Assembly: GCA_029556545.1 (NCBI GenBank)
Contig: JAKQEQ010000042.1
Coordinates: 18,729-82,728 of the forward strand
Length of the DNA: 64,000 nt
Direction: 5' to 3'
Source of the DNA: Candidatus Hydrogenedentota bacterium
GTDB lineage: Bacteria; Hydrogenedentota; Hydrogenedentia; Hydrogenedentales; JAGMZX01
Part shown: one piece after another, positions 2,410 through 37,503 of the stretch
How positions within the stretch are numbered: the stretch's first letter is position 1
How the letters are laid out: each line of letters starts with the position of its first letter
The notes under the pieces: model-generated
What the model saw: the letters and a program-made list of their open reading frames with translations, nothing else
What the model was told of the DNA's origin: nothing
Databases searched by the model: none
Position numbers and translations under genes: made by a program

Positions 2410-2513
2410 CTTGATGTTCTCCGCTTTCCTTGCCCCTATTCTACCGCGTCCACCCGCTTCGTTACAGCGCGCCGGATGGACTTTCCCGCCCGCAAGGTTG
2501 TAGCCTCACCCCC

Positions 2514-3023
2514 ATGACGGACGTCGCCCTCCACATAGACGACCCGGCGGTCCGCATCACGATCAAGGCGATGCTCGAAGCCGCCGGCCACCGCGTCGTC
2601 ACGCATAACCCCGACGTCATCATCGCCGACGCGCCCGACGCCGCCGTCGAACTCGCGAAACACGCCCCGACGCTGACCCTCGCCGCCGCCGCCGACCTCC
2701 CCCGCGCCATCGACGCCATGCGCAACGGCGTCTTCGGCTACATCTTTCTCCCCCTTCAGCCCGGCGAGGCCGTCCTCATGGTCGACCGCGCCGTGAACGC
2801 GCCCCAGACCCGTCATTCCCGCGGAAGCGGGAATCCAGCAAACGCGCCTTCCGACACCATGCCCGATCCGACCGAAGACCTCACCCTCGCGACCCTCGAG
2901 CGCGATCATGTCCTGCGCGTGTTGCGCGCGCACAAATCCAATCACACTGCGGCCGCGCGCGCCCTCGGCATCGGACGCAACACGCTCTGGCGCAAACTGA
3001 AGCAGTATCAACGGGAGGTATGA
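2514..3023 (+). CDS. Fis-family HTH transcriptional regulator with degenerate receiver-like N-terminal domain
   Basis: C-terminal ...HTAAARALGIGRNTLWRKLKQY is the Fis/NtrC-type HTH. N-terminal ~110 aa resemble a CheY-like receiver (VIIADAPD). No sigma-54 AAA+ domain. Start chosen at MTDVALH (2514) inside longer ORF 2430..3023. Confidence 0.6.
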   Translation: MTDVALHIDDPAVRITIKAMLEAAGHRVVTHNPDVIIADAPDAAVELAKHAPTLTLAAAADLPRAIDAMRNGVFGYIFLPLQPGEAVLMVDRAVNAPQTRHSRGSGNPANAPSDTMPDPTEDLTLATLERDHVLRVLRAHKSNHTAAARALGIGRNTLWRKLKQYQREV

Positions 3024-3027
3024 ACTT

Positions 3028-4995
3028 ATGCGGCCACGATGCGTCCTACTCGCGGGCGGACTGTGCCTGGCAATCCTGGTCGGCAGCAACGCCCCGACCG
3101 CCGCCGCGCCGCTGGCCGTCGGCCCCATGTCGGACGCACCCGCGCCCGCCGACCTGCCGGAAATCCTCGACCGGCTCTACGTCTCCATCGAGGGCCAGGC
3201 GCGCCACCTGCTCACCCACGTGGACCCCTGGAGCAAGGACCGCGCGCTGAAACTGCTGACGCGAAGCAAGCACGGCGAGCACTGGATTCGCCCGAACACC
3301 GGCGCGTTCGCGGCCTTCTGTTTCCTGCACCGCTTCGGCCCGTACGATGCGGCGCGCGTCGGCGCCTCGCGCGAGACGCTGCTCGACGAAACCATCATTC
3401 CGATGGCCCGCTATCTGGTCACGACGCACGTCACCGGCTCGCGACCCACCGGCGACGGCGATCCCTGGGGCGACCAGTGGCAGTCCGCGCATTGGGCGCA
3501 CATGCTCGCGCGCGGCGCGTGGTGGGTCTGGGGCGCGCTCCCGCCGGACCTGCGCGACGGCATGTGCCGCGTCATCGCGCACGAGGCCGACCGTTTCGTC
3601 GACCTGACGCCGCCGCACAACCTCGTGGACGACACGAAGGCCGAGGAGAACGCCTGGAATGCTCAGGTTCTCTCGACGGCCGTCGTGCTGATGCCCGAGG
3701 ACCCGCGCCGCCCCGATTGGGACCGCGCGTTTCAGCGCTGGGCCTTGTCGTCGTTCCTGCGGCCCGCCGACGCGACCTCGGACGCGATGGTGGACGGACG
3801 CCCCCTCGCGGACCAATTCACCGGCGCGAACATCTACGACGACTTCACGCTCGAAAACCACCGCCGCGTGCATCCCGACTACATGGCCACGTTCCTGCTC
3901 TCGATGGGCTGCGTCATCGACTTCGCGATGACCGGCCGCATACCGCCCGAGGCCGTTTATCACAACGCCGCCGGCATCTACGAGAACCTCAAGTGGTTCT
4001 CGCTCCCGAGCGGCGGGTTCGTCTATCCGAACGGCCAGGATTGGGAACTCTTCCGCGACCCCGAGTGGCTCGTCGTCCACGTGCTCATGGCCGCCCACGG
4101 CGGCGACCCCGATGCGTGGGCCCTCGCGCGGCCCTGCATCGACACCCAGGACAAGATGCAGGCGCGCGACCCCTCCGGCGCGGTCTACCTCGACAACGAA
4201 TTCTTCTTCCCCTCGACCCGAACGGACCAGGTGTACTACTCCGTCCTCGCGTGGCTCTTCGCGCAATACCGCAACCCCATCATCGACGCGACGCGCCCGC
4301 GCCTCGGCGTGCTCGCCCTCGAACACGGGCGCATCCTGCTCCACCGCACGCCCGCCGCCGTCCACGCCGTGAGTTGGGGCCCCGAGACCATGATCCAGTT
4401 CGTGCCGTACCGCCTCGACCGCGTCACCTCGCCCCACCCGAGCAGCGGCGTCGGCCATATCCGCCTCGCGGGCGAGAAGGACCCCTTGCCCGTCCGCGCG
4501 CGCAACGTCGCGGTCTCACGCGACGACGGCTTCACCGCCGACCTCGATCTCATTTACGGCGACGACCTCGTCAATGCGCGCTGGCGCGTGCGGTCCACGT
4601 CCGACGGCGTCATGCACTGGCGCGCGACGATCACCGCCCTCGCCGACGTCGAGACCGCCGAGATCGCCGCGGGCCTCATCGGCGTCCTGAACAACACGCT
4701 CTGGATATACGAACGCGGCGCGCGCACCCTCGCCGTCGACGGCGCGAAACGGACCCTGGCCTGCGGCAGCGGCGAAGAAGTCCGCGCCGACGGCGCGCGC
4801 GTCGTCGTGATTGACGGTGTGCTGCGGGTCGAATCCGAAGCCCCGCTGCGCATGCGCTACAAGACTGCCGCCGCGCCCGAACGCGCCCGTTTCACCGACG
4901 AACTGCACCTGGTTTACAATGACGCGCCCGCGACGTGGCCCAAAGGCGCGACCATTGCCGAACTCGACGTCCGCTTGTCCACAGTACCGCAATAA
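3028..4995 (+). CDS. secreted hypothetical protein (655 aa)
   Basis: N-terminal signal peptide (MRPRCVLLAGGLCLAILVGSNAPTAAA). Long uninterrupted ORF. Alternate-frame ORFs over the same span are Arg-rich GC artefacts. Confidence 0.65.
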   Translation: MRPRCVLLAGGLCLAILVGSNAPTAAAPLAVGPMSDAPAPADLPEILDRLYVSIEGQARHLLTHVDPWSKDRALKLLTRSKHGEHWIRPNTGAFAAFCFLHRFGPYDAARVGASRETLLDETIIPMARYLVTTHVTGSRPTGDGDPWGDQWQSAHWAHMLARGAWWVWGALPPDLRDGMCRVIAHEADRFVDLTPPHNLVDDTKAEENAWNAQVLSTAVVLMPEDPRRPDWDRAFQRWALSSFLRPADATSDAMVDGRPLADQFTGANIYDDFTLENHRRVHPDYMATFLLSMGCVIDFAMTGRIPPEAVYHNAAGIYENLKWFSLPSGGFVYPNGQDWELFRDPEWLVVHVLMAAHGGDPDAWALARPCIDTQDKMQARDPSGAVYLDNEFFFPSTRTDQVYYSVLAWLFAQYRNPIIDATRPRLGVLALEHGRILLHRTPAAVHAVSWGPETMIQFVPYRLDRVTSPHPSSGVGHIRLAGEKDPLPVRARNVAVSRDDGFTADLDLIYGDDLVNARWRVRSTSDGVMHWRATITALADVETAEIAAGLIGVLNNTLWIYERGARTLAVDGAKRTLACGSGEEVRADGARVVVIDGVLRVESEAPLRMRYKTAAAPERARFTDELHLVYNDAPATWPKGATIAELDVRLSTVPQ

Positions 4996-5153: not shown

Positions 5154-5188
5154 CCAAAAAACCGTGGCACGGGCGTCCCGCCCGTGGT
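5154..5188. terminator. GC-rich hairpin flanked by A6 (plus) / T6GGGTTT (minus), terminator-like, possibly bidirectional
   Basis: aaaaaaCCGTGGCACGGGCGtccCGCCCGTGgtc: 8-bp stem CACGGGCG/CGCCCGTG with a 3-nt loop. On the minus strand the hairpin is followed by TTTTTTGGGTTT. Confidence 0.35.
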
Positions 5189-5193
5189 CTTCA

Positions 5194-5245
5194 ATCATGG
5201 GCAAAATGCCCATGCCACGCAATCAACAGATACGCCGCAATTCGG
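5194..5245. repeat. copy 1 of a ~50 bp imperfect direct repeat (ATCATGGGCAARATGCCCATGCCACG...CAGATRCGCSGCAATT)
   Basis: About 84% identical (by hand alignment) to 6563..6612. Contains the small palindrome ATGGGCA-N3-TGCCCAT. Confidence 0.7.
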
Positions 5246-5313
5246 CGCGGCAATCTCTTCCTCCTCTCCGGTCTGCTATACTGGAGACGGACCGCGCCAA
5301 GAGGACCTCGAAA

Positions 5314-5613
5314 ATGGATTTGCCGATTGTTATCGACGAGGAACAGATCGCGGCATTTTGCCGCAAGCACCCCCTGACGAAGCTCGCGTTATTCGGGTCG
5401 GTGCTGACGGACCGCTTCGGACCGGACAGCGACGTCGACGTGCTCTTCGAGTACGACCCCCAACACGTGCCAAGCCTGTTCGACGTCGTCGAGATGGAAG
5501 AGGAACTCAGCGCAATCCTTGGACGCCGGGCCGACATGCGAACGCCCTGCGACCTGAGTCGCTACTTCCGCGACGAAGTCGTCCGCACCGCGCAGGTCCA
5601 CTATGCTGCTTGA
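5314..5613 (+). CDS. nucleotidyltransferase domain protein (MntA/AbiEii-like minimal nucleotidyltransferase), no HepT partner
   Basis: GSVLTDRFGPDSDVDVLFEY is the classic GS...DxD minimal nucleotidyltransferase motif. Start at MDLPIVIDEE (5314) inside ORF 5164..5613. No DUF86/HepT-like ORF downstream. Confidence 0.75.
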   Translation: MDLPIVIDEEQIAAFCRKHPLTKLALFGSVLTDRFGPDSDVDVLFEYDPQHVPSLFDVVEMEEELSAILGRRADMRTPCDLSRYFRDEVVRTAQVHYAA

Positions 5614-5642
5614 CTCGGACCACATCCCCACGCACGACCGTC

Positions 5643-5802
5643 ATACCCGCGCAAGCGGGTATCCAGCGCAATGCGCCATTCCCGCGCGTTCGCGCGGGAA
5701 TGACCGGTTTATTCTGATTGCTGGATTCCCGCTTTCGCGGGAATGACGGGGAGGGACTGGGTTCCCGCTTCCCGCTTCCCGCTTCCCGCTTCCGCGGGAA
5801 CA
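5643..5802. repeat. cluster of palindromic hairpin units (family A: GTCATTCCCGCG-GNRA/GAAA-CGCGGGAATCCAG) plus (CCCGCTT)x4
   Basis: Contains TTCCCGCGCGTTCGCGCGGGAA (perfect hairpin), CTGGATTCCCGCTTTCGCGGGAATGAC (reverse-orientation unit) and gttCCCGCTTCCCGCTTCCCGCTTCCCGCTTCCgcgggaac. Same family as 6185-6450 and 37422-37503. Confidence 0.8.
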
Positions 5803-5839
5803 GGTTTCGTGGAAATGATGAAGCAAGGAGGGCTGACCC

Positions 5840-6133
5840 ATGCGGAAGAGAGAACCCGCCGTATACATTCTCGCAAGCCGGCGGAATGGGACCTTGTACA
5901 CTGGAGTTACAAGCGATCTGAGCAGGCGGGTCTGGGAGCACAAAACCGACGCGGTCCCGGGGTTCACCAAGAAGCATGGCGTACACCTGCTTGTGTACTA
6001 TGAATGGCATACAACCATGGACTCCGCCATATCCCGCGAGAAGCAGATCAAGAAGTGGAACCGCGCGTGGAAGCTGCAATTGATCGAGGACTATAACGCG
6101 GACTGGCGAGACTTGTACGAAGAATTGATGTAG
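5840..6133 (+). CDS. GIY-YIG nuclease family protein (97 aa)
   Basis: VYILASRRNGTLYTGVTSDLSRRVWEHK... is the canonical GIY-YIG motif with the conserved R and E. Size typical of stand-alone URI-domain proteins. Confidence 0.85.
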   Translation: MRKREPAVYILASRRNGTLYTGVTSDLSRRVWEHKTDAVPGFTKKHGVHLLVYYEWHTTMDSAISREKQIKKWNRAWKLQLIEDYNADWRDLYEELM

Positions 6134-6184
6134 TACGGGATCGTTGCTCGCGCGGGCATAACGCAACATGGCCCAGAATCACTC

Positions 6185-6450
6185 CCCCCCGTCATTCCCG
6201 CGCAAGCGGGAATCCAGCGCCCCCCGTCATTCCCGCGCAAGCGGGAATCCAGCGCCCCCGTCATTCCCGCGCAAGCGGGAATCCAGCGCCCCCCGTCATT
6301 CCCGCGAAACCTGTTCCCGCGGAAGCGGGAAGCGGGAATCCAGCGCCCCCCGTCATTCCTGCGAAACCTGTTCCCGCGGAAGCGGGAAGCGGGAATCCAG
6401 CACCCCCCCGTCATTCCCGCGCAAGCGGGAATCCAGTCATTTCCACACGG
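6185..6450. repeat. tandem array of 6 copies of a ~35 bp hairpin unit (CCCCCCGTCATTCCCGCGCAAGCGGGAATCCAGCG), two copies carrying a ~24 bp nested-hairpin insertion
   Basis: Units abut head-to-tail with no unique spacers. 8-bp stem ATTCCCGC/GCGGGAAT with GNRA-type loop GCAA. Translates as the spurious WIPACAGMTG/SFPRKRESS repeats seen in ORFs 6091..6960(-) and 6168..6470(+). Confidence 0.9.
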
Positions 6451-6562
6451 TCTCGCCCGTCCCCGTCTAGCCCCCTCGCGCGGGCATGAAGCAAAGGCAC
6501 AAGGGCAAGAATGTCCCATCGCCGGTCGGTTCCGAGATGGCTTCCAGTCTCGCCATGAGCAA

Positions 6563-6612
6563 GGATCATGGGCAAGATGCCCATGCCACGGCGTCAGCAG
6601 ATGCGCGGCAAT
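6563..6612. repeat. copy 2 of the ~50 bp imperfect direct repeat; overlaps the last 7 codons of hypE
   Basis: Matches 5194..5245. Together the two copies bound a ~1.4 kb segment containing the MNT gene, the GIY-YIG gene and both hairpin-repeat blocks. Confidence 0.7.
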
Positions 6613-7645
6613 TGCTCGCCGCTGAGCATATCGAGAATGCGCTGCGCGCCGATGCGGCTTTCGAGCGTGACCCGCCCTGGCGCGTCGGCGTGGGCGTGGC
6701 CGATGATCGCGGGCTGCGGCGCCTGGGGATGGCCGCGCAGCACGTCGAGCGCGCGCGCCGCGTCGTCCGCGGCGACGACCGCCATGAAGCGCCCCTCGTT
6801 CGCGACGTAGAGCGGGTCGAACCCGAGCAGTTCGCACGCGCCGCGCACGTCGTCGCGGACGGGGATGTCCGTCTCGCGCAGGTGCAACCCGACGCCCGCC
6901 GCCTGCGCGATCTCGTTCGCCGCGCTCACGAGCCCGCCCCGGGTCAGGTCGCGCAGGCAATGCACTTCGACGCCCCCGCGCAGCAGCGCGAGCACGGCGT
7001 CCGCCACCGGCGCGGAATCGCTCTCGATGGCCGTCTCGAATTCGAGCCCCTCGCGCGTGGCCATAATCGCAATGCCGTGGCGGCCCAGGTCGCCGTTGAT
7101 GAGGACGACGTCGCCGGGCCGCACCGCGCCGGGCCCGATGACGCAGTCGTGCTCGATGACGCCGATCCCCGCCGTGTTGATGAAGAGGCCGTCGCCGCCG
7201 CGCCGCTCGATGACCTTCGTGTCGCCCGTCACGACTTGCACGCCGCAGGCGTCCGCCGCGCGCCGCATCGACGCGACCAGCCGCAGCAGCAGTTCTATCG
7301 AAAGCCCCTCTTCGAGGATGAATCCCGCGCTAAGGTACAACGGCCGCGCGCCCGCCATCGCCAAGTCGTTCACCGTCCCGTGGACCGCCAGCGACGCGAT
7401 GTCGCCGCCGGGGAATTCGAGAGGCTGCACGACGTAGGAGTCCGTTGTGAACGCGATCCGCGCGCCGTCGATCGCGATCCGCGCCGCGTCGTGCCGCTGC
7501 GCCAGCAGCGGGTTGTCGAAGGCGCGGAGGAACACGTCCTCGATCAGGCGGTGCATGGCCGTGCCGCCGCCGCCGTGCGCCATCGTGATCACCGGGCTCG
7601 ATGCGTGCGGCATCGGGCAGGACAGCGTGAATTCCCCCGGCGTGC

Positions 7646-7649
<4 letters not shown>
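6594..7649 (-). CDS. hypE: hydrogenase expression/formation protein HypE
   Basis: PurM-like fold. Ends ...EQLPRIC as is typical for HypE. Start ATG (rc of cat 7647-7649) gives MSTPGEF and overlaps the hypD stop by 4 nt. Confidence 0.9.
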
Positions 7650-8745
<1,096 letters not shown>

Positions 8746-9000: not shown

Positions 9001-11314
<2,314 letters not shown>

Positions 11315-21428: not shown

Positions 21429-23696
21429 ATGGATGCTGCCCCGTCGAGAAGGCTGTGCGCCGCGTGCGCCGTCGCGGCGTTCCTGTGCATCGCCGCGGCC
21501 ATGTTCACCCATACCGTCCTCGCCCGCGCCCCGTGGTTCGGCGAAGCGCCCATGAACATCGCCGGCTGGATGACCGGCGGTTCCACGCTCATGGCGAAGC
21601 ATTGGCACCACGAGGGCGCGTGCGCGATGCGGTTCGCCATGGTTTGGGAGCCGGACTCCATCGAGCAGCCGTACCTCGGCGAACGCACGCCCTACGTCTC
21701 CTATCCCCCCGGCGCGATCCTGCCCCTCCATCTGCTGGCCCTGTGCCGGGGCCGCGAACCGACGCCCAGCCTCGCAATGGCCCTCAACCTCGCGCTGCAT
21801 CTGGTCACCGCCCTGGTCCTCGCGGCAACCGTCGCCCTGTTATTGCGGCGCGCCGCATTCTCCCGGTGGAACGCCTTCGTCCTCGCGCTGGTCCCGCTGT
21901 CGCTCTATCTCTACCTCCCCATTGCCTACCACGAACACCTCATGAGCTACTTCGCCGACGCCGCCGTCCTTCCGCTCTACGCCCTCTTCATCTTCCTCGA
22001 AATGCTCAGAGACCGCGTCGAAAGACCTTGGATGCGTCGTTCGCTGGCCATGATTCAGGGGTTTGTCGGCGCGCTCGGGCTGCTCACCGACTGGCTATTC
22101 GCGTTCCTCGCGGCGTGCGTCTGGTTGGCGCGGCTCGGGCGCGGGCGGCTTGGGCGCGGCATCTTCGAACCCGCGCGAAACTCGCTCGTCTATGCCCTGC
22201 CCTTTGTGGCGGTACTCGCGCTCTTCATAGTCCAAGTGATCGCAATCGGGGGAAAAGACATGATCATCGAGCGGTTCCTCCTGCGATCGGGAGCCACGCC
22301 CGGCCACGGTCTCGCCGACGGTCGCAACCCGCTCGATTACGCCTCGCTGGACACCTTCCTCAGGTTCTCGCTCGATACGCGCTTCTGGAACGAGCATGTC
22401 CCCGCATCCTTCGGCCGACACGGAACACCGATCATCGTCTTCTCCTTCGCCGCATGGGCCGTCCTGACGCTCCTGACCGCCTTCAAGACCCTGCTTCACC
22501 GCCTCCGCCCCCGTCGTGGCCGGTCTCCCGACCGTGCCACCGACACGACCGAAGGTCTCCCCCGTTGTGGCCGGTCTCCCGACCGTACCACCGACACGAC
22601 CGAAGGTCTCCCCCGTTGTGGCCGGTCTCCCGACCGTACCACCGACACGACCGAAGGTCTCCAATCGTCCTCACCCTCGCCGAGAGCAAATGCCGCTGCC
22701 GGCCTGCTCGCCGCCGCGTTCCTGTATCTCGTTCCCTGCCTCCTCTACTACCACGTCTTCAAGCAGCACAACAACCTCCTCTTTCACCGCTACAGCACCC
22801 TCAAGTTCGCCCTGCCCCTGGCCGCGCTGCCCCTCGCGATCCTGCCGGCCGCGTGCTGGCGACTCTGGTTTCCGGCCCCCGCACCGCAACCCTTTCCCAT
22901 AGGTAAACGGGGGGAGTGGAAATTGGGTCCCTTGGCCGGTCGATGCGCTCCGGTGGCCCTGCTCGCGCTCGCCGCCGCGTTTCTCGTAGCCGTGACGCCC
23001 GAACGCAAGGCGCTCTTCTTCTCCGATGACGACCTCCGCCACGTCGCCGCCGGAAAGTTCATCGCCGCGAACACGACCCGGAACGACATCGTCTTCGCCC
23101 CCGCGCGCCCTGCCTGGGCCGATATGCCCCAGTTCCGATGCTACGCCATGAAGCGGCTCCACCCCGCGAGCTCCGTCTGGGACCTCTACGCCTTTGTGCG
23201 CGATATCGACGGTCCCTGGCGCATCGCGCTGTTCCTCGACCGCGCCGACCGGCTTGATCGGCTGCCGGAGTTGCGCGCGCTTGGGACCCTCATTCGGGAC
23301 CGCGTTTTCTTTCAGGGCGCGTTGTTGCTTTATGTTGATAAATGTATTTTTGCATCGTTTTGTGAACGTATACGTGTCAATACGAAACACCCGAATGACC
23401 GCAACCGCGATGGCCGACTGACCCTTGACGAACTCGCGCCCGTCATTGACGCCTATCTCGCCGGGGCCTATCACGACGACCCAAGCGCCCCTTCCGGCTA
23501 TGCCGCCGGGCCCGGCCCCGTTGCACTGCCGCATCCCGGAGACTACGGCCCGGACGTGGTGGACGGCCAAATCAATCTGTCGGAACTGCTCCGGCAGACG
23601 CAGTTGTACAATAGCGGCGGATACCGTTTCGACGCGACGGCGCAAGGCCGCTTCGCGCCGCACGCGCCCACGGAAACCACAGGAAGCATTCCATGA
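21429..23696 (+). CDS. polytopic membrane protein with internal 3x17-aa tandem repeat and C-terminal dockerin/EF-hand-like Ca-binding repeats
   Basis: More than 10 TM helices. PRRGRSPDRATDTTEGL x3. C-terminal DRNRDGRLTLDELAPVIDAY and DVVDGQINLSELL loops. Start chosen at MDAAPSRRL (21429); ORF opens at 21210. Confidence 0.6.
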   Translation: MDAAPSRRLCAACAVAAFLCIAAAMFTHTVLARAPWFGEAPMNIAGWMTGGSTLMAKHWHHEGACAMRFAMVWEPDSIEQPYLGERTPYVSYPPGAILPLHLLALCRGREPTPSLAMALNLALHLVTALVLAATVALLLRRAAFSRWNAFVLALVPLSLYLYLPIAYHEHLMSYFADAAVLPLYALFIFLEMLRDRVERPWMRRSLAMIQGFVGALGLLTDWLFAFLAACVWLARLGRGRLGRGIFEPARNSLVYALPFVAVLALFIVQVIAIGGKDMIIERFLLRSGATPGHGLADGRNPLDYASLDTFLRFSLDTRFWNEHVPASFGRHGTPIIVFSFAAWAVLTLLTAFKTLLHRLRPRRGRSPDRATDTTEGLPRCGRSPDRTTDTTEGLPRCGRSPDRTTDTTEGLQSSSPSPRANAAAGLLAAAFLYLVPCLLYYHVFKQHNNLLFHRYSTLKFALPLAALPLAILPAACWRLWFPAPAPQPFPIGKRGEWKLGPLAGRCAPVALLALAAAFLVAVTPERKALFFSDDDLRHVAAGKFIAANTTRNDIVFAPARPAWADMPQFRCYAMKRLHPASSVWDLYAFVRDIDGPWRIALFLDRADRLDRLPELRALGTLIRDRVFFQGALLLYVDKCIFASFCERIRVNTKHPNDRNRDGRLTLDELAPVIDAYLAGAYHDDPSAPSGYAAGPGPVALPHPGDYGPDVVDGQINLSELLRQTQLYNSGGYRFDATAQGRFAPHAPTETTGSIP
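22509..22661. repeat. 3 x 51 bp near-perfect in-frame tandem repeat inside the 21429 CDS
   Basis: cccgtYgtggccggtctcccgaccgtRccaccgacacgaccgaaggtctcc x3 with 2 mismatches. Also produces spurious minus-strand ORF 22095..22664. Confidence 0.9.
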
Positions 23697-37421: not shown

Positions 37422-37503
37422 CCTGGATTCCCGCTTCCGCGGGAATGACGGAGAAGAGGGCCAAATTCGCCCCCGGCGTCATTCCCGCGGAAGCGGGAAT
37501 CCA
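37422..37503. repeat. inverted pair of family-A hairpin units (CTGGATTCCCGCTTCCGCGGGAATGAC ... GTCATTCCCGCGGAAGCGGGAATCCAG)
   Basis: Read directly. Same unit as the 6185-6450 array. Gives spurious IPASAGMT peptides in ORFs 37249..37527 and 37418..37627. Confidence 0.85.

Follow-up and report, generated by a model that had tools for sequence, protein, structure and literature searches.

An ssnA-like hairpin module and an orphan MntA-like antitoxin gene between a live and a relic hypE end: a probable insertion scar of known parts

Genes for SsnA, a site-specific nuclease of the Ssn family that acts on ssDNA, have NTS/SRM hairpins on their flanks (Chenal et al., Nat Commun 2025, PMC11893778). 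The enzymes of Neisseria and Wolbachia cut ssDNA, not dsDNA or RNA, 5' of the hairpin, and the likeness of the hairpin-gene-hairpin layout to an insertion sequence was remarked on by the same authors, who proposed IS-like behavior and left mobility open (PMC11893778). For the CGTC repeats, no dedicated enzyme was found by Di Nocera et al. (BMC Genomics 2013, PMC3733652). Here, we analyzed a 64-kb stretch of DNA (the window) in which an ssnA-like gene with its hairpins and the remains of an antitoxin-toxin operon lie between two copies of a hypE 3' end. Since these parts are known ones (an antitoxin gene, SsnA, and NTS hairpins), the segment is not a new kind of element but probably an insertion scar.

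The ssnA-like gene (5840-6133, + strand), which has an AGGAGG ribosome-binding site upstream and is single-copy in the 64-kb window, encodes the 97-aa GIY-YIG nuclease that a first-pass annotation had placed inside the segment. The protein is single-domain, as PF01541 spans residues 7-79 (E 3.7e-16) and other domains are absent, and an alignment of 13 homologs from at least 10 phyla or classes shows no variation at residues Y9, Y20, R30, H34, and E67. Homologs 67-77% identical occur in many phyla, and none is closer than 77%. Classification as a GIY-YIG homing endonuclease was rejected, given the lack of an extra domain and a TIGR01453 score of 19.9 bits against a cut-off of 56.

Hairpins lie on both sides of the gene, in the cluster and six-unit tandem array already recognized by the first-pass annotation. 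The upstream cluster (5639-5818), delimited by repeat, fold, and consensus searches, holds a degenerate unit with a compensatory T>A/A>T change (5639-5666, + strand), a half unit (5687-5707), a perfect NTS (5721-5748, - strand), and a composite unit that includes a TTCCCGC x4.6 run (5749-5818, - strand). The downstream array (6185-6436, + strand; TRF periods 35 and 57) has its arms inverted relative to this cluster and is made up of four simple units of 34-36 nt (6190, 6225, 6259, and 6409) plus two 57-nt composites with a nested hairpin. Next comes degenerate SRM debris (6437-6494), in which CTCGCGCGGGCATGAAGCAA repeats 6147-6166, and then a unique spacer of about 70 nt that extends to 6564. 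The strict published 28-nt NTS consensus has five matches in 64 kb, all flanking the GIY-YIG gene (5721-5748 on the - strand and the four simple units on the + strand), while a degenerate SRM pattern gives six (also 5639) vs about 0.7 expected by chance. A CGTC-tagged unit, CGTC-ATTCCCGCG-CAA-GCGGGAAT-CCAG, is present in nine copies in the window, one of them in frame within a gene (2812-2836), and its DNA hairpin folds at -9 kcal/mol (z -4.6). Rfam returned sub-threshold noise only.

Placed by domain, conserved residues, and flanking NTS, the GIY-YIG gene and its hairpins are a predicted SRM-ssnA-SRM module of the Ssn family. The first-pass annotation had suggested that the GIY-YIG gene with its "family-A" hairpins could be a selfish element; this idea gives way to a match with a published module. 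In a Chloroflexi genome, a homolog with 71% identity has the same NTS 28-mer on either side. By analogy with the described enzymes, the 97-aa protein is presumed to be an active nuclease, which should bind the NTS hairpin (CGTCATTCCCGCG-CAA-GCGGGAATCCAG) in ssDNA and cut a few bases 5' of it; the hairpins around the gene would then be its putative cognate sites. The NTS-bearing sequence CCCCCCGTCATTCCCGCGCAAGCGGGAATCCAG is a candidate substrate of the protein.

The other gene inside the segment, for only two were found there, encodes a minimal nucleotidyltransferase (MNT). Its cassette (5258-5621, + strand) consists of a promoter-like TGCTATACT region, a CDS of 99 aa (5314-5613), and the first ~19 nt of HepT. 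The product matches PF01909 (E 6e-13) and the minimal nucleotidyltransferase PDB 1WOT (E 3e-6), and PADLOC matched the MNT only, to candidate system PDC-S09. Over 5258-5621 the window shows 78-80% DNA identity to the intact MNT-HepT operons L106-L112, in which HepT (116 aa, PF01934) starts 11 nt ahead of the MNT stop. This homology ends at 5621, about 19 nt into HepT, leaving a remnant of ~6 codons (5603-5621; ATG at 5603, MLLDSD...) that breaks off 17 nt before the first hairpin. Searches with four partner HepT proteins (tblastn) found no HepT anywhere in the 64-kb window, and a HepT C-terminal remnant was looked for after the array without success. These results show an MntA-like orphan antitoxin gene whose HepT partner has been truncated. 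They agree with the first-pass view of an MNT lacking its HepT partner, possibly a decayed toxin-antitoxin cassette.

The segment is bounded by a direct repeat, which a repeat search returned as a single family of two copies, 5194-5251 and 6565-6622, with 81% identity over 58 nt and a spacing of 1371. The ~50-bp, ~84% repeat reported earlier is therefore real, with copy 2 starting at 6565 rather than 6563 and the similarity running about 6-10 nt longer. Each copy comprises a hairpin half (26 nt, 25/26 identical) and a tail half (32 nt, 22/32 identical), and both halves were found at these two sites only in the window; in shuffles, the hairpin part is expected to match 0.00 times and the tail part 0.19 times. 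The tail match has a binomial P of about 1e-6, and 2.4e-5 of random 32-mer pairs from the window score as well. The longest identical core of the 58-nt repeat is at most 14 nt, and the tails have diverged more than the hairpins (10/32 vs 1/26 positions; Fisher P 0.016). As the first-pass annotation had stated, copy 2 supplies the end of hypE, combining hairpin H1 (6590->6567, minus strand) with the live stop codon (6594-6596) and last codons (...GEQLPRIC*). Copy 1 pairs H1 with a decayed hypE end, read on the minus strand as ...RAELRRIC* (stop 5223-5225), and its tail shows no homology to DNA upstream of other MNT cassettes. Two differences between the copies are synonymous (TGC/TGT and CGC/CGT). 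An integron attC reading was dropped, since neither copy has RYYYAAC/GTTRRRY ends by inspection.

Directly beside the relic is a terminator-like structure (5156-5219, minus strand), in which the family-B hairpins H1 (5219->5196) and H0 (5163-5186) form a single long stem; TTTTTT, the A-run 5156-5161 of the + strand, comes after it. The stem folds at -40.1 kcal/mol as RNA (z -4.3, then U6) and at -21.4 kcal/mol as DNA (z -4.25); a simple terminator scan misses it, its sole hit being a weak site within the relic. This strong structure adjoins the relic only, and the live hypE end has a hairpin without a U-run. Together, the relic hypE end and its adjoining terminator-like structure support the view of the segment as accessory DNA behind hypE, in line with the small composite insertion downstream of the hyp operon that had been proposed at first. 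The family-B hairpin, CGTGGCAYGGGC-N5-GCCCRTG, also turns up in 17 viral-collection contigs, where its flanks are unrelated and it often forms doublets, and H0 is the third copy in 64 kb; the 32-nt tail was not found beside any of the other copies examined. Hence the possibility, raised at the outset as grounds for doubt, that the repeat recurs at many unrelated places applies to its generic, REP-like hairpin half, but not to the tail, which is at two sites only in 64 kb.

From these parts, we think it probable, though well short of certain, that accessory DNA was inserted between hypE and its former terminator, duplicating the junction and leaving a mosaic of two modules. The first is an MntA-like antitoxin gene that has a promoter of its own and whose HepT ends after about 6 codons; the second is an SRM-ssnA-SRM unit, which most likely displaced HepT. 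The joining point would be the REP-like hairpin just past the hypE stop codon, and joining would have left the junction (the terminal ~29 nt of hypE with its stop codon, plus the hairpin) on both sides: the copy attached to hypE would have remained functional, and the other would have remained with the old terminator and decayed. Recombination, illegitimate or homology-assisted, probably joined the DNA, which possibly came with its own hypE end; transposition is not favored. A transposon or IS with a target-site duplication was rejected, as no transposase gene lies inside and the segment is bounded by direct repeats that share 81% identity over 58 nt. Likewise, the first-pass suggestion of a clean TSD or att site fails, because the tails differ at 10 of 32 positions and recombinase and transposase are absent from the segment. 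Since the repeats are too diverged for a fresh target-site duplication, we infer the recombination mechanism, as we do the order of events. With differences at 31% of positions, the tails have diverged as much as fourfold-degenerate sites have between this species and its closest relative, L100 (0.295; HypE 87.5% identical), so either the event took place long ago or the two copies differed from the start.

Comparison with relatives centered on hypE (6594-7652, - strand; TIGR02124 E 5e-130), the last gene of hypF-C-D-E, which is syntenic with L088 and L095. The first-pass annotation had proposed looking for an empty site, with hypE followed by sequence from outside the segment. No such allele was seen among about 20 same-species contigs from at least nine samples, obtained by exact look-ups of SsnA, HypC, the 48-aa ORF, and MNT; each of them matches the window at 99.9-100% identity and carries the segment. 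Where a contig extends to the hairpins, it breaks off within or close to the array, and several end sooner. The exact 352-aa HypE has no record in the collection, where another start is called (351 aa in L088), and a HypE genome scan gave no relative closer than 75%. HypE relatives at about 87%, 85%, 77%, and 76% each have different DNA after hypE, and synteny among relatives breaks at the 3' flank of hypE, with rarA next in L095 and a CitMHS transporter in L104 and L105. In L100, hypE is followed by hairpin H1, which bears a compensatory G>A/C>T pair, and, about 150 nt on, by an H0-type hairpin, with no MNT or ssnA between them; the contig ends there, and the L100 spacer aligns with neither side of the window segment. 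In a metagenome scan, no homolog of the 655-aa neighbor exceeded 58% identity, apart from one partial match at 63%, and hypE was not adjacent to any of them, so that no orthologous left flank was found. The relic resembles none of 88 other hypE ends more than it does the live end, so that this comparison pointed to no donor. A sliding identity profile showed no identity step along the hyp operon that would mark a recombination tract, and no plasmids with similar DNA were found.

One alternative, which we regard as unlikely, is that a site-specific recombinase placed a larger integrative element, carrying a replacement hypE end, in the hypE 3' end and that the segment is what erosion has left of it, with the repeats as attL/attR and the integrase and most cargo deleted. 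Imperfect direct repeats that rebuild a gene 3' end are typical of tRNA- and gene-3'-end-targeting islands, and repeats including the target gene's 3' end are present here. The differences between the copies, including the synonymous TGC/TGT and CGC/CGT, fit two diverged hypE ends, and a toxin-antitoxin remnant with a repeat-associated nuclease is island-type cargo. Against this, no recombinase, integrase, or transposase was found in 5194-6622 or among the neighbors scanned or annotated (a Fis-type regulator, the 655-aa protein, the 48-aa ORF, and hypE/hypD), the identical core never exceeds 14 nt, and we know of no report of hypE as an integration target. Since only 1.37 kb remains, the idea depends on lost parts.

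Equally doubtful is a local tandem duplication of the hypE 3' region, e.g., by slippage or template switching at the hairpins, after which the spare copy eroded and MNT and ssnA were inserted later and independently. REP-type hairpins are known join points for duplications, as with the REPs of E. coli and Salmonella, and the two window hairpins (25/26) are closer to each other than to the L100 ortholog; moreover, the MNT cassette is seen nested in other loci too. However, this scenario requires more steps and leaves the significantly greater divergence of the tail than of the hairpin against it, while the left edge of the MNT cassette is only 6 nt from the relic end, which suits a single joining event.

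It is very improbable that the GIY-YIG gene, together with its hairpins, moved as an autonomous element and by its own insertion produced a long target-site duplication. The hairpin-gene-hairpin layout is IS-like, the homologs at 67-77% identity are spread across many phyla, and HepT is missing exactly at the module's position, but the direct repeats enclose the MNT cassette too, are not built from the module's hairpins, and are 19% diverged. Furthermore, the gene is single-copy in the window with no homolog above 77% identity, and SsnA cuts ssDNA only, with no strand-transfer activity known (PMC11893778). Finally, the notion that no event occurred, i.e., that two copies of a generic hairpin carry tails alike by chance, may draw on the doublets with unrelated flanks and on the third hairpin copy, but is hardly credible given a 22/32 tail match in fixed register with the stop codon and RIC motif aligned, the lack of such a tail at other family-B copies, and a tail local-alignment score of 15 vs 7.9 +/- 1.2 for shuffled sequences, a control taken from another pair (the copy-1 region vs L111).

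Within the favored junction-duplicating insertion at the REP-like hairpin, there is a slim chance that the SRM-ssnA-SRM unit arrived as a mobile unit in the MntA-HepT cassette, removing the toxin gene. If so, the locus would offer comparative evidence for the IS-like behavior proposed by the Ssn authors (PMC11893778) and a hint that loci are reshaped by the ssDNA-cutting Ssn modules that enter them; should sister genomes confirm an empty site, it could tell whether such modules move. The analysis also gives a name and a likely activity, by analogy, to a gene and array auto-annotated as "GIY-YIG nuclease family protein" plus unexplained hairpins, and extends the reach of the Ssn/NTS pairing, with the exact Neisseria NTS 28-mer in Hydrogenedentota-type and Chloroflexi genomes. 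In addition, the segment is a worked example of small accessory cassettes accumulating between a gene and its terminator and leaving a relic gene end.

Among known systems, the Ssn modules (PMC11893778) are matched by a single-domain GIY-YIG protein of 97 aa, compared with 94 aa for Neisseria SsnA, and by clustered, directional hairpins on both sides that fit the NTS consensus CGTCATTCCCGCGMAVGCGGGAATCYRG exactly. Unlike those modules, this one resides in a Hydrogenedentota-type bacterium from anaerobic digesters, has two composite units with a hairpin nested in another's loop, and abuts a truncated toxin gene. The CGTC-tagged REPs, dRS3, and RPE (PMC3733652) share the CGTC tag, G+C-rich palindromic stem, CCA-type tail, and clustered copies, as well as, for REPs/RPEs, the in-frame copy inside a gene, whereas here a GIY-YIG gene lies among the hairpins, as in PMC11893778. 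Like type VII MntA-HepT (MNT-HEPN) pairs, the cassette encodes a 99-aa minimal nucleotidyltransferase that has a GS...DxD motif and shares 85-87% identity with proteins encoded ahead of a HepT gene, and it retains the overlapping HepT start codon; it differs in the loss of HepT after about 6 codons and in an NCBIfam MntA equivalog score of 39.7 bits, under the cut-off of 60. The family-B hairpins resemble REPIN/RAYT and REP-type terminator hairpins in forming head-to-head doublets that fold into one long stem, in following stop codons, and in being present in many unrelated contigs, but their tag is CGTG rather than GTAG or CGTC, there are only three copies in the 64 kb, and a RAYT or other transposase was not found here. 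In comparison with islands that duplicate a target gene's 3' end and with the minimal mobile elements of Neisseria, the integrase is absent and the cargo very small; what the locus has in common with them is accessory cargo between conserved genes, imperfect direct repeats that include a gene 3' end, and variable content behind hypE among relatives.

The segment downstream of hypE is bounded by one two-copy direct repeat of 58 nt (5194-5251 and 6565-6622; 81% identity, spacing 1371 nt), as determined by a repeat search of the window. The first-pass annotation had placed these copies correctly to within a few bases and described the anatomy of the segment accurately; the feature is real. No further copies of either repeat half were found in the 64 kb beyond these two sites (matches predicted from shuffled sequence for the two halves, 0.00 and 0.19). 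The halves are unlike: the first 26 nt (ATCATGGGCAARATGCCCATGCCACG), which fold as an 8-bp hairpin, are identical at 25/26 positions between copies, while the 32-nt tail matches at 22/32, a significantly greater divergence (Fisher P 0.016). In its fixed register, the tail match far exceeds chance (binomial P ~1e-6), and when 32-mers of the window were paired at random, a fraction of 2.4e-5 matched at least as well.

The hypE gene (6594-7652, minus strand; TIGR02124, E 5e-130) ends within copy 2, which reads on the hypE strand ...GEQLPRIC, stop codon, 4 nt and the hairpin. Copy 1 reads ...RAELRRIC, stop codon (5223-5225), 4 nt and the same hairpin, with the universally conserved PRIC of the HypE C-terminus appearing as RRIC. 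Since the layout is that of copy 2 (RIC, stop, 4 nt, hairpin), copy 1 is a relic hypE 3' end. Just past the relic's hairpin (H1; 5219 to 5196, minus strand) lies another of the same family in inverted orientation (H0; 5163-5186), followed by TTTTTT. On the hypE strand, H1 and H0 pair as a single long stem (RNA, -40.1 kcal/mol, z -4.3) ahead of U6, and this terminator-like structure makes a convincing predicted intrinsic terminator. At the live hypE end, H1 is present with neither partner hairpin nor U-run. The simplest reading is that the ancestral hypE finished and terminated at the relic, and that 1.37 kb now separates the gene from its terminator.

The pattern of these family-B hairpins, CGTGGCAYGGGC-N5-GCCCRTG, matches three times in the window, always at the hypE locus (5163-5186, 5196-5219, and 6567-6590), and also occurs in 17 contigs of a viral collection (L159-L175). 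Since the viral-collection copies have unrelated flanks and are often head-to-head doublets with a short spacer, as in the H1/H0 layout, the hairpin half is a REP/REPIN-like element with a CGTG tag; no enzyme associated with these CGTG-tagged hairpins was identified. The possibility, raised earlier, that the repeat is a generic motif thus holds for the hairpin half but fails for the tail: none of the copies in the 17 contigs carries a hypE-like tail, which is therefore no part of the motif.

Only 6 nt past the relic end (5251) is the left edge (5258) of a cassette containing a 99-aa minimal nucleotidyltransferase gene (MNT; 5314-5613; PF01909, E 6e-13; PDB 1WOT). The protein reached 39.7 bits with the NCBIfam MntA model, for which the cut-off is 60, and matched the PADLOC candidate system PDC-S09; proteins 75-88% identical to it number in the hundreds, many named Hydrogenedentes. 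In the two sets of genomic contexts compared, homologous MNT genes are followed by a 116-aa HepT (PF01934), the toxin partner, whose start codon overlaps the end of MNT, 11 nt ahead of its stop. Window positions 5258-5621 share 78-80% DNA identity with these operons. This stretch takes in a promoter-like region, the whole MNT gene, and ~19 nt from the beginning of HepT, whose start is kept (ATG at 5603; MLLDSD... vs. MLPDSD... in intact operons), and the homology ends 17 nt short of the first hairpin (5639). No intact or remnant HepT was found elsewhere in the window. Hence MNT lacks its HepT partner, as the first-pass annotation had noted, apart from the ~19-nt start described here, and the annotation's suggestion of a decayed toxin-antitoxin cassette agrees with a retained MNT and a truncated HepT. 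In other genomes (L106-L112; ~2548-3640 in L106, L107, and L111), the 99-aa MNT cassette directly follows a truncated HepT that belongs to an upstream 106-aa MNT gene; judging from these sequences, MNT/HepT cassettes seem to nest into one another, and their left boundary is the one seen in the window.

Further along the segment lie a gene for a 97-aa single-domain GIY-YIG protein (5840-6133; PF01541, E 3.7e-16) and surrounding hairpin units (CGTCATTCCCGCGCAAGCGGGAATCCAG), which fall in the class of CGTC-tagged REPs, including Neisseria dRS3, for which no enzyme was found (Di Nocera et al., 2013, PMC3733652). Neisseria SsnA, a 94-aa GIY-YIG protein, binds the Neisseria Transformation Sequence (NTS; CGTCATTCCCGCGMAVGCGGGAATCYRG) in single-stranded DNA and cleaves just 5' of it, with no action on dsDNA or RNA; NTS-like motifs (SRMs) flank ssnA homologs across phyla, and the ssnA/NTS pair lowers transformation by NTS-bearing DNA in Neisseria (Chenal et al., 2025, PMC11893778). 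All five strict NTS matches in the window adjoin the ssnA-like gene, one upstream (5721-5748, minus strand) and four downstream (6190, 6225, 6259, and 6409, plus strand); the two clusters are mutually inverted. A degenerate SRM pattern additionally matched a unit at 5639-5666 with a compensatory T>A/A>T stem change, and in two composite array units (6293-6349 and 6350-6406) the hairpin loop itself contains another, nested hairpin. SsnA-like proteins with 67-77% identity are present in TA06, Desulfobulbaceae, Nitrospirae, Acidobacteria, Chloroflexi, Planctomycetes, Elusimicrobia, and Gammaproteobacteria. Among homologs, no variation is seen at the catalytic Tyr, Arg, and Glu positions, and a 71%-identical Chloroflexi gene has the same 28-mer on both sides. 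Because of these homologs, residues, and flanking repeats, the module fits an Ssn-type SRM-ssnA-SRM arrangement, that is, a predicted nuclease with the hairpins of a known system.

Several other repeats were observed. A 20-nt direct repeat (CTCGCGCGGGCATRAMGCAA; 6147-6166 and 6475-6494, 90% identical) brackets the downstream array and resembles a degenerate SRM half-unit in reverse orientation. In a same-species metagenome contig, L001, the array downstream of ssnA counts seven hairpin units (10560-10640 vs. window 6395-6436) rather than six; the extra 36-nt unit reflects copy-number variation or else a difference in assembly. An intergenic head-to-head SRM-like pair (37425-37449, minus; 37478-37502, plus) lies far from ssnA, and such repeats are therefore dispersed in the genome. 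The same SRM-like hairpin (GTCATTCCCGCGGAAGCGGGAATCC, 2812-2836) is also in frame within a Fis-type (HTH_8) regulator ORF (2430-3023), where it adds '...TRHSRGSGNPA...' to the linker ahead of the helix-turn-helix; from its sequence, it looks like an intragenic REP insertion tolerated by the protein. Tandem Repeats Finder also reported a 51-nt tandem repeat at 22508-22662 (3.0 copies, 98% matches; CCCCCGTTGTGGCCGGTCTCCCGACCG...).

The names attached to identical proteins indicate a Hydrogenedentota-type bacterium of anaerobic digesters as the source. Approximately 20 short-read contigs, drawn from at least nine samples, are 99.9-100% identical to the window; those reaching the hairpins end in or near the array, and all those reaching the junctions are occupied. 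No orthologous empty site was found among these contigs or the HypE relatives compared. In L095 (HypE 85%), synteny upstream of hypF is kept, a convergent rarA starts 22 nt past hypE, and no hairpin follows hypE; in L104 and L105 (77% and 76%), a CitMHS transporter is next. L100 (87.5%) comes closest to an empty site: the same hairpin (3716-3740), in which a G>A/C>T pair of changes is compensatory, directly follows the hypE stop, and an H0-type hairpin lies ~150 nt beyond (3877-3907), where the contig ends and leaves the comparison incomplete. Metagenome relatives of the 655-aa left-flank protein are at most 58% identical (63% for one partial match), and none adjoined hypE in a metagenome scan. 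Since differing genes follow hypE and no such relative adjoins it, the hypE 3' locus is a synteny breakpoint.

The relic, the predicted terminator beside it, the truncated HepT, and the Ssn-type module are established parts of the locus. Accessory DNA would have been inserted at the hairpin that follows hypE, leaving the 58-nt junction on both sides, and we consider this insertion-scar reading, as a whole, moderately probable. The tails differ by 31%, as much as fourfold sites do between this species and L100 (0.295), which suggests that the event is old or that the two hypE ends differed from the outset. Such ends would follow if the incoming DNA brought its own hypE end, as in att-type or homology-assisted recombination; the relic is no closer to any other hypE end compared, and no step in identity was seen along the hyp operon. 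The remaining probability is shared by an integrative element that has since eroded, a tandem duplication into which insertions later fell, transposition driven by Ssn, and pure chance, the last facing the statistics of the tail match. A classical target-site duplication, the long form of which was proposed earlier, is unlikely, as such duplications are shorter than 58 nt, the two copies differ by 19%, and there are no inverted ends or transposase.

The pieces of this locus are already known, namely the Ssn/NTS module, the orphan MntA-like antitoxin, and REP-like hairpins. Particular to it are the relic gene end with its displaced terminator and, on indirect evidence, the possible replacement of HepT by an Ssn module. 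If true, this replacement bears on the mobility of Ssn modules, a question left open in the work on the Neisseria system (PMC11893778).
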